Below are positions 959-6,387 of a stretch of 6,833 bases of DNA, in pieces. This stretch comes from a virus (Duplodnaviria; Heunggongvirae; Uroviricota; Caudoviricetes): IMG/VR virus record IMGVR_UViG_2645727743_000001, positions 1 through 6,833 of that record. The stretch is one strand, 5' to 3'. The notes beneath the pieces are model-generated. The model worked only from the letters and a program-made list of their open reading frames with translations. It did no database searches and was not told the origin of the DNA. The translations under genes were made by a program, and so were the position numbers. The first letter of the stretch is position 1. Each line of letters begins with the position of its first letter.

Positions 959-3439
959 TTAAAAATCAGCCTGACTCGGGATCAGTTTTTGTATCGTAGC
1001 TGTAACGTATTTTGCCTGGTGACGGGCGTCATCCAGTGCATTGTGGCGCACGCCTTCGAATGGAATAACGGTTCTGGCATCAAAGTCGATTGTTTTTCCC
1101 AGCTCAACGATTGTGCGTACATCGCGATCGTTGTGGTAGCGCCACGGGCAGGGGATGTCCAGACGTTCGTATGAGGTGCGCAAAATTGCGTTATCGAAAG
1201 TCGCACCATTACCCCATACCTGAACGAATTTTTCATCTGAGTATTCGTTGATGAACTCCCGAAACTGCGAAAGGGCATCCTTCAGTTTTACCTGGTCTGT
1301 TAAAATGGCAGCTCTGGCTTCACTGGACTGCTTCAGCCACCATTCGATGGTTCCACCGTCAGGAACAGCCCCTGTATTCATTGCGTCAGTCAGACTGATA
1401 ACGATATAAAATACTGGCCCGATTTCCCCTGTTTGTGGGTCGAAGAAAACCGCACCAATAACCACGATGGGCGCATTGGTGTTGGTTCCCATTGTTTCAA
1501 GGTCGATCATCAAGTGGTACCACACTCTGCTGGTGGATGTGATAACGTGATGACCGTTCACCGCAATTAAGGGATCTGCCGTCTCGCCAGTTTCATTATC
1601 GCTGGCGTGGTCCTGAGCGCTGCCAGCATTCTCCTTGTGTGGATGTTCAGCGCCTTCCATTTCCTCCGGATCATTTTCCTGAACTTCAACCCGATTCTCT
1701 TCATTGAATGTTTCCTGGTATGTTGCGTCGCCCATCACCGCGCCACAATCAGGGCAGTTGCCGCCGCCGGTCTGACCGCAGGCGGTGCAGATCTTTTCCG
1801 GTTCCTGTTGCACTACTGGTTCAGGTTGTTTCGTTTCTGGCTCATTTTGTAACGCATTTGGGCTGTTTTGTTCCGCTTTCTGGCCGTTCTGTTCCGTTTC
1901 TTGCTGGTTCTGGTTCACAGAATCGCGGGTTTCCATCCCCTTCACCCATTTCGGATCATTCGGATCGCTAATTCCTGCAACAAATTCACCACGTGATACT
2001 GCAAGCAGTTCATCGGCGTCAGGCTGGCTGATATTGGCTGCCTGCATAATGTTGTTTACTTCGTCAGCGGTAACTTTTACCGGCCCTGGTTGTGCGGTCG
2101 TGTCAGATGCACCAGTATTTTGTTGTGAACCTGAGTATGTACTGTTTTTGCGGACGAAATATTCTTCTTTCGTGATTTCAGTAGCCCCGGCAGCCAGTGC
2201 CTTATCCAGACCAGAAAGTTTGTTTGCGCGACCGTATTTTTCGCCATCCTTGTCGGTGAAGAGGAAGTAGAACGGCCCCTCACGCTCTACAGATGGTTCG
2301 ACTTCCACTTTGCATTCGGTTTTTTCGTTGTCCGGAATTGCCGTTTCCACTGCATCAGTTTCTGGTACTGGCGACGAGAGAGTATCAGTTGCGCTCTGAT
2401 TTGTTCCTTCATCTTCAAACACGCCCTTTGTAGTCAGGTATTCAGTAATGTATTTGTTCAGTGCCACAGGGTCTTTGTGAATGTCGATCGGACGTTCACG
2501 GACAAGGCCAAAAATAGTCTGGCGGTCGTAGCGAAGGGCATCAGGCTGTTTGCGCATTGATGCTGAGATACGCTTCCAGTCTTCGCGGTCGTTGTTGATA
2601 ACTTCATTTTTTGCCCAGCGATGGATGCTGCCGTCAATGTTTCCGGCATCAACATCACCAGGCCACAGAGCGTAGGCCAGTTCATCATCCAGTGTTTTCC
2701 ATGTCTGCTTATATTCGCGACGAATGACAGCAATGACAGGGGAGATATTTTCTGCTGAGTTTTCAGTGTGCTGTCGGTTGACTCTGGCGCGGGCGAGATC
2801 AACAGCAGACGTGTATTTTCCGGTTTCCTTGCGTTCACCTTCGCGACGTTTTTTCCAGATGCGCATCTCTGCCTGAATTTCGGGCCATTTAGCACCAGGC
2901 TTACATTTATGCTTAACCCACCCGATGGCATGCAACTTAAGCTCCGGATACATGGCGTTAACTTCTGGCATTTTCATCAACGCTTCAACGATATGGCCGT
3001 CGAATGTTGCCATGTCTTCCTGCAACAATTCCTGTGCACTAATCACCATATCAACGGTGATGTTTTCACATGTGTCGAACTTAACCATGACAGCGTTCTG
3101 TACTTCAGGGGCCAGCTTGTCAAAAGTGACGTTCATCGGATCGGATTCAGTCTCAACCGGGACAAAGGAAGCAGACTCCTCATCCCAGCGGTTTTCCTGC
3201 ATATATTCAGCATCCCAGGAATCGAGGGCAGGGCGGGGTATACCGGGTTTATCCTCGCAAACAAGAAATTTATAAGCGCAGTCCTGAGCAGCCGGATAAT
3301 GTTCCAGGAATTGCCAGTGAAATTTTGCGCGGGCGCGACGTTCATCACCGGCTTCAATGGCAGTGGCTACAGCGACGGCACCTTCTTCCTTTATTGCCTG
3401 TTCGTCCGGAATGGCGGCGCAAATAAAGACTTTACTCAT
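959..3439 (-). CDS. ydfE: YdfE-family prophage protein, full length, with C-terminal DEDDh 3'-5' exonuclease domain (often annotated exodeoxyribonuclease VIII in lambdoid prophages)
   Basis: 826-aa ORF with SD GAGGT 9 nt upstream of ATG at 3439. The N-terminus MSKVFICAAIPDE...AVAVATAIEAGDERRARAKFHWQFLEHYPAAQDCAYKF matches my recollection of K-12 YdfE. The C-terminus carries DEDDh motifs: MIDLETMG (Exo I), WGNGATFDNAIL (Exo II), HNALDDARHQAKY (Exo III). The central region has a CxxC-x7-CxxC zinc-ribbon-like motif (CTACGQTGGGNCPDCG), a Q/E/P-rich low-complexity linker and the RecE-like segment LLAVSRGEFVAGISDPNDPKWVKG. Confidence 0.85.
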   Translation of the reverse strand: MSKVFICAAIPDEQAIKEEGAVAVATAIEAGDERRARAKFHWQFLEHYPAAQDCAYKFLVCEDKPGIPRPALDSWDAEYMQENRWDEESASFVPVETESDPMNVTFDKLAPEVQNAVMVKFDTCENITVDMVISAQELLQEDMATFDGHIVEALMKMPEVNAMYPELKLHAIGWVKHKCKPGAKWPEIQAEMRIWKKRREGERKETGKYTSAVDLARARVNRQHTENSAENISPVIAVIRREYKQTWKTLDDELAYALWPGDVDAGNIDGSIHRWAKNEVINNDREDWKRISASMRKQPDALRYDRQTIFGLVRERPIDIHKDPVALNKYITEYLTTKGVFEDEGTNQSATDTLSSPVPETDAVETAIPDNEKTECKVEVEPSVEREGPFYFLFTDKDGEKYGRANKLSGLDKALAAGATEITKEEYFVRKNSTYSGSQQNTGASDTTAQPGPVKVTADEVNNIMQAANISQPDADELLAVSRGEFVAGISDPNDPKWVKGMETRDSVNQNQQETEQNGQKAEQNSPNALQNEPETKQPEPVVQQEPEKICTACGQTGGGNCPDCGAVMGDATYQETFNEENRVEVQENDPEEMEGAEHPHKENAGSAQDHASDNETGETADPLIAVNGHHVITSTSRVWYHLMIDLETMGTNTNAPIVVIGAVFFDPQTGEIGPVFYIVISLTDAMNTGAVPDGGTIEWWLKQSSEARAAILTDQVKLKDALSQFREFINEYSDEKFVQVWGNGATFDNAILRTSYERLDIPCPWRYHNDRDVRTIVELGKTIDFDARTVIPFEGVRHNALDDARHQAKYVTATIQKLIPSQADF

Positions 3440-3724: not shown

Positions 3725-3909
3725 TGCCAGTATCCTTTTTGCATCGGGCGTAAACGTGCCAGCATTGAAAGAATGCATATTTTATTTAATAGCTCCCGTT
3801 CGTGTTTTCTCTTATTAATGGCATCTTCAGTAAATACAGGGTTACTGATTCTGACACCAATTTCAAAACAACCTTCAGACGTATTGACGTTTGGTAATAA
3901 CGTTTCCAT
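3721..3909 (-). CDS. dicB: Cell division inhibitor DicB (MinC-activating, 62 aa)
   Basis: The ORF track gives 3721..4005, but the internal ATG at 3907-3909 has SD GAGGA 7 nt upstream. Product METLLPNVNTSEGCFEIGVRISNPVFTEDAINKRKHERELLNKICILSMLARLRPMQKGYWQ is 62 aa and matches my memory of DicB. It lies about 185 bp downstream of the DicF-like terminator, as in the K-12 dicB operon. Confidence 0.8.
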   Translation of the reverse strand: METLLPNVNTSEGCFEIGVRISNPVFTEDAINKRKHERELLNKICILSMLARLRPMQKGYWQ

Positions 3910-4092
3910 TATCGCGTCCTCAACAATGAATTTTGTGATGCGGTGCCTGGTGCCTCCAGGTGACGTTAACCAGTTAATAATTAACGCCGGATACAGAGAA
4001 CCCACCCATAAGAACCAATACGGAAGTCAACTGGCCTTTTTAACTGTTCCGCGTGCGCTGAGCCGCATTCACCGCATCACAAAATGCACTTT

Positions 4093-4150
4093 AAAAGGTG
4101 CGGGTATCATGGGAAAAACAAAACGGATACCCGCCAAAAGGTAATCAACA
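4093..4150 (-). ncRNA. dicF: DicF-like sRNA, divergent variant (boundaries approximate; 3' end set by hairpin plus U4)
   Basis: Minus-strand sequence TGTTGATTACCTTTTGGCGGGTATCCGTTTTGTTTTTCCCATGATACCCGCACCTTTT. It contains a 9-bp perfect stem (GCGGGTATC at 4134..4126 pairing with GATACCCGC at 4108..4100) followed by ACC and TTTT (4096..4093). It shares TTTGGCGG..TATC..GTTTT with the K-12 DicF sequence as I recall it, and sits in the expected position between ydfC and dicB. The 5' end is not determinable from sequence. Confidence 0.4.
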
Positions 4151-4480
4151 TGGGTTGTTGCAGCGGGGTTGTCACTCAGGCGTATGGTCAACCTGACAAC
4201 CCGGTGGACATTTGCGAGGAACGGAGAACCCCCGCCATACTTACCGCCGCGCCATTTCGCGGAGTGCCACAACCGGAAGCGCACGGTCGACGAAAATTTA
4301 ACGACAGGCTATCTATGAACCAACCACCTCGCCGTGCGCTTTCGCGTTATGCCCTGACTTTTCAGGGATATATTCTTTCTGTAAACTGTCAGTGCCGGAT
4401 ACTCACCCGTGTCCGGCGCACGCACTCCACCTCACCCGTGGAGAACTCCTTAATTACCAACCCTCAGGAGGGTGAAATTT

Positions 4481-4672
4481 ATGACACAAGAAGAAAAAGT
4501 AATGTTTCTTATGCGCCTGGCTGTGGAAACCTTTAACGCCCATTGCCAGGTGCCCCTTTCACTATCTCACGTTATTTCTCTTGCTACCGAGCAAATGGGG
4601 GAAATTGACGCCATTTACAATACATTTGAAGCATTCCTGGATAAGAAGCTTATGGCAGAGAAGCGTCAATAA
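4481..4672 (+). CDS. Hypothetical 63-aa protein, convergent with and overlapping the 3' end of the 201-aa cargo gene
   Basis: ATG at 4481 is preceded by a strong SD AGGAGGG (4466-4472) with an 8-nt spacer; the ORF track begins at the upstream GTG at 4472. Product MTQEEKVMFLMRLAVETFNAHCQVPLSLSHVISLATEQMGEIDAIYNTFEAFLDKKLMAEKRQ is non-repetitive and reads as helical. No competing long minus-strand ORF spans 4285-4649. No family recognised. Confidence 0.45.
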   Translation: MTQEEKVMFLMRLAVETFNAHCQVPLSLSHVISLATEQMGEIDAIYNTFEAFLDKKLMAEKRQ

Positions 4673-5255
4673 TCCTCATTACCCATCGTAAATTTACAGA
4701 AGTGGGCTTGATGTTGTGTTTTTCAAGCTCGCTCTTCATGATTTCCAGCAGCTTTGAGCTGATAATAAACAAATCAGGTGCATCGTTATTATTTTTATCC
4801 GCATCGTCTTTTTTCGTTTTTAACTCTTGCGGTGAATGTTCGAAAGCAACTTGCAGGGTATTATTTTTAACATCCACAGAGCTTAAAATATGTGCATATG
4901 GATGTGCTATTGTGCGCCCCTGTAAATTTGCATCGTTTTCTAAATCTTTTGATTTCAACAGAACATCAGCAAGACTCTGAATCATGCAGAGATAATCAAA
5001 AACAGTTGCCGTTTCTGTTCTGATTGCTGAAATAACATGACCATTCAGGCAAACAGAAATTACCCGTTCATCAATATCGTTTTCCTGTTTTTGATTATCA
5101 GAACCATATAGCCCTGAAAAAGCATTGCGCACATTACGAACCATATTATCGATGGTTTCTTTTTTGGTGTATGCCGGGTCAATTTTCACCAGACTATCAC
5201 CGAGTGTCGTTGCAGCAATTATCTGGATTTCTTTTGGTAAATCTTTAAATTCCAT
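4650..5255 (-). CDS. Hypothetical 201-aa soluble protein, low-GC cargo gene inserted in the dicB operon
   Basis: Intact ORF with SD GAGG 6 nt upstream of ATG at 5255, starting 22 nt after the ydfC-like stop (operon-coupled). Sampled 60-bp lines give about 33-42% GC versus about 57% in the ydfE gene. No transmembrane segment or catalytic motif recognised; there is a D/K/N-rich linker (KKDDADKNNNDAPD). Confidence 0.75.
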   Translation of the reverse strand: MEFKDLPKEIQIIAATTLGDSLVKIDPAYTKKETIDNMVRNVRNAFSGLYGSDNQKQENDIDERVISVCLNGHVISAIRTETATVFDYLCMIQSLADVLLKSKDLENDANLQGRTIAHPYAHILSSVDVKNNTLQVAFEHSPQELKTKKDDADKNNNDAPDLFIISSKLLEIMKSELEKHNIKPTSVNLRWVMRIIDASLP

Positions 5256-5277: not shown

Positions 5278-5496
5278 TTAACGTGGGTATGTAATCATTC
5301 TGGCAATGCTTAATGCCGCTGCTTTTTCCAGATTGGTGATATCCTGCTCCAGAGCGGACAGATTTTCAGCCTGCTTAGCCCTGGCTTCATTGGCCCATTT
5401 CAGGTCCTGCGCAGCCTTAATTTTCTGGTGCATCCACTCATAAAGTTCATCATCGGTATAGTCTGGCGCGATGATGACGGGTTCTCGTTTCTGCAT
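5278..5496 (-). CDS. ydfC: YdfC-like small prophage protein (72 aa)
   Basis: ORF MQKREPVIIAPDYTDDELYEWMHQKIKAAQDLKWANEARAKQAENLSALEQDITNLEKAAALSIARMITYPR with SD GAGGA 6 nt upstream of ATG at 5496. Same length and operon position as Qin YdfC. Confidence 0.7.
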   Translation of the reverse strand: MQKREPVIIAPDYTDDELYEWMHQKIKAAQDLKWANEARAKQAENLSALEQDITNLEKAAALSIARMITYPR

Positions 5497-5525
5497 ACTG
5501 ATTCCTCGCGGTGCTGCTTCGCTTA

Positions 5526-5654
5526 TCAGCCGTTAGATTTTGCCGGGCTGGAAAGCGCCTGTTTAAATTCGCTGAAGCTGAGGGCTTCTTCGCCTTCGGC
5601 AAGGCCTTCGAAGTATTCTTCGTAAGCCTTTTCCATGATTGTGTCGAAATCCAT
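5526..5654 (-). CDS. ydfB: YdfB-like small protein (42 aa), not in the ORF track
   Basis: Hand translation of the minus strand gives MDFDTIMEKAYEEYFEGLAEGEEALSFSEFKQALSSPAKSNG. ATG at 5652-5654 lies 1 nt after the ydfA-like TGA stop (TGAtATG); stop TGA at 5526-5528. Length and position match Qin YdfB. An alternative start is the internal ATG at 5634-5636. Confidence 0.6.
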   Translation of the reverse strand: MDFDTIMEKAYEEYFEGLAEGEEALSFSEFKQALSSPAKSNG

Positions 5655-5655
5655 A

Positions 5656-5811
5656 TCACCCACCTGAATCTCTTTCCAGCCAGCGACGCGCTCCAGATTC
5701 GGTTTTAAACGTTTTGCTTTTGGTATACGTCATTGCGGTGAACGTGCCGTCCTGGTTTGGAAACACGCCGTACACCAGAGATTCGTTGTTGCCAAGATCG
5801 ATAGTATCCAT
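5656..5811 (-). CDS. ydfA: YdfA-like small protein (51 aa, DUF1391-type)
   Basis: The ORF track gives 5656..5865; the internal ATG at 5809-5811 has GAGG 5 nt upstream. Product MDTIDLGNNESLVYGVFPNQDGTFTAMTYTKSKTFKTESGARRWLERDSGG is 51 aa and matches my recollection of YdfA. Confidence 0.7.
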   Translation of the reverse strand: MDTIDLGNNESLVYGVFPNQDGTFTAMTYTKSKTFKTESGARRWLERDSGG

Positions 5812-5889
5812 GCTGACCTCATTTCCCCTTAACGCCGGGGTAGCGGAACTGTTTGCTGAGAACACCGTGCGGTGTCTTGATGGAAAGTA

Positions 5890-5907
5890 ATTTAGAATAA
5901 CCTAACA
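5890..5907. promoter_or_regulatory. Degenerate operator-like palindrome (minus-strand reading TGTTAGG-TTAT-TCTAAAT) in the dicB-operon promoter region
   Basis: Matches the TGTTAGA-N4-TCTAACA pattern at 11 of 14 arm positions. Centre lies 36 bp from the perfect site at 5926-5943, between the dicA stop and the ydfA start. Confidence 0.4.
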
Positions 5908-5925
5908 TGAGAGGCAAGTGTTTTT

Positions 5926-5943
5926 TGTTAGATTGATCTAACA
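5926..5943. promoter_or_regulatory. Operator palindrome TGTTAGA-TTGA-TCTAACA (candidate DicA site controlling the ydfABC-dicF-dicB operon)
   Basis: Perfect 7-bp inverted arms with a 4-bp spacer, read directly from the sequence. Located in the 168-bp gap between the dicA stop (5980) and the ydfA-like start (5811). Confidence 0.6.
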
Positions 5944-5979
5944 AAAAGGGTGGGCGCAACTAATCACTTGAAAAGAATG

Positions 5980-6387
5980 TTATTTTATTGATTTATTTTT
6001 ACGCGCTTTAAGCATTTCTTCGAAGAGTTTGTTGAAGTTTTCTACTCTTGCGCGCATTTCAGACAGCAAGGCTTCCTGCTCGGAAGATGGAAGAGCATCG
6101 AATAATTCGATCAATTCTTTGTGGTTGGGAGTTAGCTCTGTTTCCACATGAAGTTCTTGTGCAGGCACTGGTGCCTTGTCTTCGTCACCAAACATTAGCC
6201 ATGTAGGTGAGCACTTCAGAGCATCCGCTAAAGCAAACAATCGTTTTCCGACTGGCTGGGTTTCGTCTCTTTCCCATTGTGAAATTGTGACGTGAGCAAC
6301 TCCAGCGAGGCGCGCAGCTTCTCGTTGTGTTAAGCGTAATTCTTTTCGTCGCGCCAGAACTCGCTGGCCTAGGGTTCTTGTATCCAT
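5980..6387 (-). CDS. dicA: HTH XRE-family repressor DicA (135 aa), the CI-like immunity repressor
   Basis: ORF MDTRTLGQRVLARRKELRLTQREAARLAGVAHVTISQWERDETQPVGKRLFALADALKCSPTWLMFGDEDK...EMRARVENFNKLFEEMLKARKNKSIK. It has the same length as K-12 DicA and shares CSPTWxxFGDEDK and EMRARVxNFNKLFEE with it (from memory). Divergent from the dicC-like gene. Weak or absent SD. Confidence 0.85.
   Translation of the reverse strand: MDTRTLGQRVLARRKELRLTQREAARLAGVAHVTISQWERDETQPVGKRLFALADALKCSPTWLMFGDEDKAPVPAQELHVETELTPNHKELIELFDALPSSEQEALLSEMRARVENFNKLFEEMLKARKNKSIK

Follow-up and report, generated by a model that had tools for sequence, protein, structure and literature searches.

A hairpin other than DicF in the dicF slot: a rare allele in the dicB leader of a Qin-like lambdoid prophage

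The window, by which we mean the whole stretch of 6,833 nucleotides analysed here, carries on its minus strand a dicA-like repressor gene, the homologues of ydfA, ydfB and ydfC, an ORF of 201 aa, a non-coding leader, dicB, a ydfD-like gene and an exonuclease gene, in this order (Table 1). These identities derive from the list of ORFs and from an annotated genome with 99.3% identity to the window over 6.6 kb. The operon is taken to be the dicB operon of a Qin/mEp460-like lambdoid prophage. The upstream part of the operon is 89.8% identical to K-12 (positions 1762-2562 of locus L001), a homology that suggests the presence of a promoter equivalent to dicBp; a promoter consensus scan of the minus strand returned no dicBp-like promoter. 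The genes of the operon are intact in the window, including the 201-aa ORF, which is interrupted, as a pseudogene, in the genome with 99.3% identity and has no counterpart in K-12. In the same genome, the convergent 66-aa ORF of the plus strand is annotated as the hypothetical protein WP_052931385.1. The 826-aa ORF, annotated as 'exonuclease', has a long acidic low-complexity middle and a C-terminal region with a DnaQ-like DxE motif (MIDLETMG...), and occupies the position of the lambdoid recombination genes.

Table 1. Features of the dicB operon and of its leader in the window, listed from upstream to downstream on the minus strand.
Feature	Coordinates	Strand	Sequence	Basis or remark
Upstream operon part (dicA-like gene, dicBp-homologous region, ydfA/ydfB/ydfC homologues)	5278..6387	-
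dicA-like repressor	6387..5980	-		ORF list; annotation of near-identical genome
201-aa ORF	5255..4650	-		between ydfC and leader
66-aa ORF	4472..4672	+		convergent
Conserved non-coding leader upstream of slot	4157..4462	-		homology to K-12 ydfC-dicF spacer
Perfect small hairpin of the leader	4367..4352	-	CCCTGAAAAGTCAGGG	identical in K-12
71-aa ORF across slot	4284..4069	-		coding reading rejected
Hypervariable patch 1	~4233..4205	-		6 classes
Slot, as hypervariable patch	4156..4093	-		at least 6 classes
5' arm, B type	4156..4136	-	AACCCATGTTGATTACCTTTT	minus-strand reading; K-12 alignment; arm typing
Hexamer CCCATG, first copy	4153..4148	-	CCCATGTTGATTACC	in B-type arm
Motif	4139..4131	-	TTTTGGCGG	start of stem-loop element
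Mini-hairpin	4135..4122	-		flagged by terminator scan
5' stem	4134..4126	-	GCGGGTATC	minus-strand reading; 4135 is G
17-nt U-rich loop	4125..4109	-	CGTTTTGTTTTTCCCAT	minus-strand reading
Hexamer CCCATG, second copy	4113..4108	-	CCCATGATACC	B1 loop/stem junction
3' stem	4108..4100	-	GATACCCGC	minus-strand reading
Spacer ACC	4099..4097	-	ACC	3 nt between stem and U-tract
Short U-tract	4096..4093	-	TTTT
Sub-threshold STnc100 match	4096..3890	-		covariance model
Long-range helix, 5' strand	4084..4070	-	TTTTGTGATGCGGTG	begins 8 nt past T-run
Hypervariable patch 3	~4036..4011	-	AGGCCAGTTGACTTCCGTATTGGTTC	11 classes; inside long-range helix domain
Long-range helix, 3' strand	3945..3931	-	CACCGCATCACAAAA	ends 21 nt before dicB start codon
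dicB, 62 aa	3909..3721	-	METLLPNVNTSEGCFEIG...	annotated in 99.3% identical genome
826-aa ORF	959..3439	-		annotated 'exonuclease'

DicF is a textbook prophage sRNA and among the earliest antisense regulators to be described. In K-12, it is cut from the polycistronic transcript of dicBp by RNase III, which gives a species of 190 nt, and by RNase E, which gives the 5' end of the 53-nt RNA, the 3' end being set by a terminator (PMC10448788). The 3' and loop part of DicF pairs with the ribosome-binding site of ftsZ, as established by compensatory mutations, and its 5' arm pairs with xylR and pykA (PMC5069750).

The stem-loop and U-tract reported upstream of dicB in an earlier note on the window are real and lie on the minus strand, a strand that the note did not name. 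The 9-bp hairpin 4134..4100 is both the minimum free energy structure and the centroid of the RNA fold; its folding relative to shuffled sequences is characterised by z = -1.94, and 8 of 200 shuffles fold equally well. Taken by itself, the hairpin is only modestly unusual and would not convince; what sets it apart from chance is its positional homology to the annotated dicF. When the K-12 Qin locus and its annotation were aligned base by base to the window, the alignment ran without interruption, at ~95% identity, from a point ~310 nt upstream of the element as far as dicB, and the hairpin fell exactly on the annotated K-12 dicF. The dicB ATG (3909) is 188 nt away from the hairpin in the window and 174 nt away in K-12; the extra length comes from 14 nt inserted in a variable patch.

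Within the slot, the alignment bears out the further observation of the earlier note that loop and 5' sequence differ from those of K-12. The window shares with K-12 dicF only a start of the pattern TTTGG-CGG-TATC-GTTTT, an end in CCGC and the T-run. The K-12 arm sequence GCCCTCTGTTATCAATTTTCTGGTGACGTT is replaced by the B-type arm, in which the xylR-pairing segment of K-12 DicF, CTGGTGACG, is absent, and an 11-nt piece of the DicF 5' arm, CTGGTGACGTT, is deleted. In comparison with type-A loci, i.e., those with canonical DicF, the slot differs by 28-56% per 25-nt segment, versus 0-8% for the flanking blocks. The window and the Qin DicF of K-12 (RF00039) have in common the slot between the ydfC-side leader and dicB, the start TTTGGCGG and the CCGC(C) plus T-run end of the terminal hairpin, and also the upstream leader, which is conserved, and the long-range helix downstream, whereas in the window the inner stem and the loop are replaced and the T-run is shorter and offset.

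A coding reading of the slot was also considered, as a 71-aa ORF of the minus strand and a 150-aa ORF of the plus strand run across it; it was rejected because the slot lengths across types (83, 86, 81, 93, 74 and 91 nt) keep no frame. In a terminator scan, the structure flagged was a mini-hairpin in which the 5' stem strand pairs with the first part of the loop (GGCGG/CCGTT), and the T-run of the loop itself, TTGTTTTT, comes next; it may be a weaker alternative fold. Furthermore, the hexamer CCCATG, present in the B-type arm and at the loop/stem junction, recurs in the loop of a different hairpin (type E, see below) in the slot of Escherichia albertii L184, GCCCATGAACTGATG; its occurrence in both arm and loop suggests that the two may share an origin through duplication or exchange.

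The DicF covariance model of Rfam found no match on the whole window at E<=1, and none on the 181 nt from 4040 to 4220 at E<=10 with lax filters, while with the same tool K-12 dicF, used as a positive control, scored 76.7 bits against a gathering score of 48. The element of the window is therefore not DicF by the curated criterion of RF00039. The earlier note, which had called the element a DicF-like sRNA, had named the lack of a significant hit of this model, together with that of a small RNA from this strand, as what would speak against it, and the former is what was found here. That the near-identical genome and all 205 matches carry no ncRNA annotation was considered as additional support and discarded, since canonical dicF is itself mostly unannotated in RefSeq. 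Other properties by which DicF is recognised are only partly present. The location is that of DicF, in the dicB operon, upstream of dicB and within the conserved ydfC-dicB leader; a terminal hairpin of 9 bp with the shared outer pairs is present, with a U-tract of only 4 nt after the 3-nt spacer; the single-stranded 5' arm that serves for xylR and pykA is not there, owing to the deletion of CTGGTGACGTT; and the complementarity of loop and 3' part to the ftsZ ribosome-binding site is reduced to a weak contact in the 139-gene pairing test described below and is under background in the full-length duplex energies.

In this test, hybridisation and opening energies were added up for 139 translation-initiation regions of K-12, taken from three stretches of 50 kb. 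For canonical DicF, xylR ranked 1 and pykA 5, with nt 5-14 pairing with xylR, and the duplex with the ftsZ ribosome-binding site, formed by nt 31-53, had an energy of -22.9 kcal/mol. For the hairpin of the window, which belongs to a type that we call B1, xylR fell to rank 77 and pykA to rank 24, and for the related type B2 to ranks 73 and 28, respectively. The test is weak, the proven DicF-ftsZ pair reaching only rank 31 of 139 once opening energies are added, and a missing predicted target is consequently not evidence of absence; likewise, unconstrained full-length duplexes are noisy, with ilvH at the top for most RNAs. The deletion in the arm and the loss of CUCCG, the anti-Shine-Dalgarno core of DicF, from the loop are instead unambiguous at the sequence level. 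With the arm deleted, the ftsZ-pairing loop replaced and the pairing tests in agreement, the B1 hairpin would not act on the known DicF targets, in line with the suggestion of the earlier note that an sRNA with changed pairing regions may regulate other mRNAs or have lost its function.

A target prediction against ftsZ, as the same note had asked for, bears on the rival explanation that the RNA would still repress ftsZ, its loop pairing with the ribosome-binding site in a way that differs from DicF and yet suffices. The loop segment UGUUUUUCCCA is able to pair with positions -12 to -1 of ftsZ, CGGAGAGAAACU, over 9 base pairs that include one G-U, with one bulge, and cover the Shine-Dalgarno sequence, with a hybridisation energy of -9.7 kcal/mol and a total of -7.3 kcal/mol. 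However, this contact ranks only 20 of 139 and is lost in the related loop of B2, for which ftsZ ranks 107. Over the full length, the duplex z for ftsZ is -1.37 for type A and +0.5 to +0.8 for the B types, i.e., below background complementarity, with 442-470 of 500 shuffles as good or better. Considering also the missing CUCCG core and the lack of an Rfam DicF match, we regard a functional DicF equivalent acting on ftsZ as highly improbable.

The nature of the element becomes clearer when it is placed among the other occupants of the slot, which were collected from IMG/VR by a search anchored on the invariant flanks, with any gap allowed between them, and by gathering DicB-encoding loci from species-representative genomes. 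The 183 instances obtained comprise 42 distinct sequences that fall into discrete types. The slot is a cassette with at least six types of hairpin (A, corresponding to DicF, B1, B2, C, D and E) and three of arm. Type A, with the A-arm and the sequence GGCGGTATCAG...CTGCTCTGCCGCC, is found in most loci. The B-arm is shared by B1, the type of the window (GGCGGGTATC / CGTTTTGTTTTTCCCAT / GATACCCGCC), by B2, which has the stem of B1 and the related U-rich/CCC loop CGTTTTTTGTTTTCCCTTGT, and by C (GGCGGCATCAG / TTTCATTGCTGG / CTGATGTCCGCC), the latter two being present in IMG/VR and in E. coli genomes. Type D combines a truncated A-arm with the hairpin GGCGGA / AACGGATA / TCCGCC (L107 and L187, the latter from E. 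albertii), type E has the A-arm and a new hairpin (E. albertii L184), and a third type of arm is found in L337. A half-deleted type C occurs in L145 and L154, which are clearly decayed slots. The score of the DicF model falls in a gradient from 76.7 bits for A to 43.5 for E and 34.1 for C, the last two below threshold, and the model gives no score for B2, D or B1.

All types share the T-run and the outer pairs GGCGG/CCGCC, and in the folds computed per type the inner stem, self-complementary and specific to the type, counts 6-13 pairs; B2, C, D and E likewise differ from one another in inner stem and loop. A stable hairpin is thereby kept in every allele through changes on both sides of the stem, which points to selection for hairpin plus T-run and not for a particular loop. 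RNAalifold, run on a MAFFT alignment of nine hairpin versions, returned only the five invariant outer pairs and counted no covariation, the inner stems being misaligned because the loops differ in length. A loop pattern CG-U(4-8)-G-U(3-5)-CCC is nevertheless recognisable across 8 versions of the B family. A metagenome scan with the B-type stem returned at least one locus in slot context, and unrelated palindromic hairpins dominate the matches listed.

Among 5,426 complete E. coli genomes, type A is present in 3,969, B1 in 24, B2 in 92 and C in 108, and many of the B1 carriers are named ETEC strains; B7A, TW10722 and ETEC-2265 are examples. The divergence noticed in the window is thus not the drift of a single copy that the earlier note had in mind, but that of a discrete and recurrent allele of a multi-allelic cassette. 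The element is a rare B1 allele of the dicF slot, homologous to DicF in position and in the base of its hairpin, and distinct from it in sequence, Rfam membership and complementarity to targets. The consensus of B1 is a clean hairpin of 10 bp, unchanged in 21 of the 24 genomes. All B1 copies are on a single haplotype; the type is young, and its internal conservation carries no weight. No description of the B, C, D and E alleles was found in the searchable literature, in which the B and C hairpin sequences led to unrelated papers only; in this respect, the main survey of dicF distribution took only copies that were >99% identical (PMC5069750). Some loci carry unexpected host labels: a dicB locus with 85% protein identity (L182, JAGZPX010000007.1) is on a contig labelled as a Veillonella parvula MAG, and phage records labelled Actinobacillus, Aeromonas and Salmonella (H121 and others) match the E. 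coli leader at up to 87%; these labels are probably binning or labelling artefacts and not a real host range.

The copy of B1 in the window carries two private substitutions, at 4099 and 4086. The former is a change from C to A, and A is absent at this position from all other copies compared; in the B1 consensus the C pairs with G4135, so that the stem counts 10 bp in the consensus and 9 bp in the window, with predicted energies of -16.4 and -14.5 kcal/mol, respectively. The substitution at the base of the stem thus weakens this copy further. Downstream, the T-run is TTTT after ACC in the window versus C plus TTTTT in types A, B2 and C. The private changes, the short T-run and the decayed type C slots elsewhere are all compatible with a functionless remnant, in which recombination and mutation would have scrambled what was once a dicF or a terminator, within a cryptic prophage. 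We consider this improbable: the hairpin of the B1 consensus is clean, every allele retains a stable hairpin despite two-sided changes of the stem, the surrounding blocks of the leader are more conserved than the dicB coding sequence, and the operon genes are intact down to the ORF that is broken in the nearest genome.

The leader itself combines conserved and variable parts. Its upstream part corresponds to the K-12 spacer in which the 190-nt precursor of DicF has its RNase III site, and a divergence profile built on 143 unique loci shows near-invariant blocks, at 0-8% from type-A loci, interrupted by three hypervariable patches, of which the slot is the central one. Patch 1 resembles a small hairpin, the stem of which is GGGG/CCCC in some types and GAGG/CCUC in others; patch 3 reads CCAAAAACAGTG in K-12. 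The three patches are shuffled independently of one another, which argues that recombination has assembled the leader as a mosaic, joined at the conserved blocks. Downstream of the slot, a long-range helix of 15 bp closes a branched domain between the hairpin and the dicB ribosome-binding site. The fold of 276 nt that includes this helix has an MFE z of -3.76, and 13 of the 15 positions of the helix are 99-100% paired across 69 unique loci, with variation of the type C-G/U-G/U-A at position 11 and G-C/G-U at position 12. It could be a substrate for RNase III or a control element for the translation of dicB.

The spacer downstream of the hairpin also resembles the STnc100 RNA (RF02076), with 32.6 bits against a threshold of 47. 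Full-length matches of 31-38 bits, again below threshold, were found in the same spacer of K-12 and of other alleles (L001 2933-3142, L184 2324-2533, L108 363-586 and L187 2315-2533). The recurrence of these matches in every allele suggests a partial homology of the dicB 5' leader to the prophage RNAs STnc100/PasD. As an identity for the locus, PasD/STnc100 was rejected: those sRNAs adjoin Q and the lysis genes, and the sub-threshold match concerns the spacer after the hairpin.

Taking these data together, the explanation that we favour, with moderate confidence, is that the B1 element is a leaky terminator and a processing, 3'-protective hairpin of the dicB leader, without the targeting typical of DicF. 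By homology to K-12, relief of the DicA-type repressor would allow transcription from the dicBp-equivalent promoter, and the transcript would cross ydfABC and the 201-aa ORF into the conserved structured leader. There, the hairpin 4134..4100 with its short T-run would act as a leaky intrinsic terminator, at which some transcripts would end at ~4093; it would limit read-through into the toxic dicB and protect the 3' end. Cleavage by RNase III and by RNase E within the conserved leader would produce the 5' ends, and any RNA of the slot would thus be excised from a transcript starting in the 5278..6387 region. The product would be little more than a hairpin with a U-rich loop, with no action on DicF targets, and the inhibition of cell division by the operon would depend on DicB alone. 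Since the leader and the downstream helix are conserved, the route of RNase III, RNase E and terminator probably applies to this allele as well; the nuclease processing proposed in the earlier note thus agrees with the K-12 literature (PMC10448788) and is extended to the window by the homology of the flanks.

The intrinsic terminators of lambdoid early-left operons offer a comparison. As in those operons, a GC-rich hairpin with a T-run precedes a host-toxic gene in an early operon, and the hairpin is kept through compensatory changes with a loop that is free to vary; unlike them, the window has a 17-nt loop and a run of 4 T at 3 nt from the stem, which are poor features. In fact, a terminator scan allowing loops of 3-8 nt and asking for a stretch of 8 nt with 5 T or more, beginning 0-2 nt past the stem, did not call the main hairpin. 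Its stem is adequate for a Rho-independent terminator (-14.5 kcal/mol), and its loop and its ACC plus UUUU tail are outside the usual definition, in which the loop is short and at least 5-6 U come directly after the stem. The poor T-run argues against efficient termination, so that the label 'terminator' is itself uncertain, and a terminator at this site would probably be leaky. A further counter-point is that a role of hairpin and T-run alone would lead one to expect a continuum of drifted loops, whereas the types are discrete; together with the near-identical flanks and the recurring B loop pattern, this would fit a sequence-specific role of the loop.

Such a role is the basis of a possible but doubtful alternative, namely that B1 is a new trans-acting prophage sRNA, whose U-rich/CCC loop, and perhaps 5' arm, would pair with purine-rich ribosome-binding regions of mRNAs that DicF does not target. 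The dicF slot would then be a seed cassette, with the RNA made by the same route of processing and termination and stabilised by Hfq. The parts exchanged in the slot are exactly those that bear the two seeds of DicF, while the terminator's base, the T-run and both flanks are kept, and the alleles are discrete and recurrent in genomes, with a loop pattern common to the B family. Hfq-dependent sRNAs generally consist of a U-rich stretch, a 3' hairpin and a U-tail, a layout that B1 would fit. Moreover, other prophage sRNAs are reported to occur as pairs of variants with divergent 5' parts (bioRxiv 10.64898/2026.05.13.724894). Against this, the 139 initiation regions contained no outstanding target for B1, the best scores (plaR, -12.4 kcal/mol; ilvH, -10.5 kcal/mol) being within the tail of the background; processing equivalent to that of K-12 would leave almost no single-stranded 5' seed; the U-tail of B1, with 4 U, is shorter than in the other alleles; and the single haplotype of B1 deprives its conservation of weight.

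A still broader reading, which we consider unlikely and offer as speculation, is that the dicB leader is a conserved RNA scaffold whose three exchangeable loop cassettes encode a family of sRNAs with differing targets, B1 being an undescribed, Hfq-dependent member. If this were true, the classical anti-ftsZ DicF would be only the commonest member of the family, the U-rich/CCC loop of B1 would target other host or phage mRNAs, and the exchange of cassettes by recombination at the invariant blocks would be a way for prophages to retarget their control of the host. Families of prophage sRNA variants have been described for PasA/PasA-2/PasC and PasD/STnc100, in a preprint that makes no mention of dicB or DicF (bioRxiv 10.64898/2026.05.13.724894). 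Like the alleles of the slot, the Pas sRNAs comprise multiple variants that recombination and repeated acquisition have spread, the terminator being conserved and the other parts divergent; unlike them, they lie near Q and the lysis genes and have other sequences, and they are supported by Hfq RIL-seq and Northern blots, whereas B1 is known here from sequence.

DicF itself is classical, and the wider interest of the locus is in the cassette structure of the slot and of the two patches beside it. Given a multi-allelic slot, the dicB operon of ~4% of E. coli genomes, many ETEC and STEC O121 strains among them, would yield an RNA other than DicF; annotation based on Rfam would be blind to these alleles, and the inference that ftsZ, manX and xylR are repressed wherever dicBF is present would fail for such strains. 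The locus would also represent a natural experiment in which sRNA seeds are exchanged on a fixed scaffold of biogenesis. The practical message is more modest, namely that the element of the window should not carry the annotation of DicF.

Two small structures of the conserved leader, ~200 nt upstream of the slot and identical in K-12, complete the description of the region: the perfect small hairpin CCCTGAAAAGTCAGGG, which loosely recalls a lambdoid boxB, and, following it, a hairpin of GNRA type, CGCGAAAGCG.
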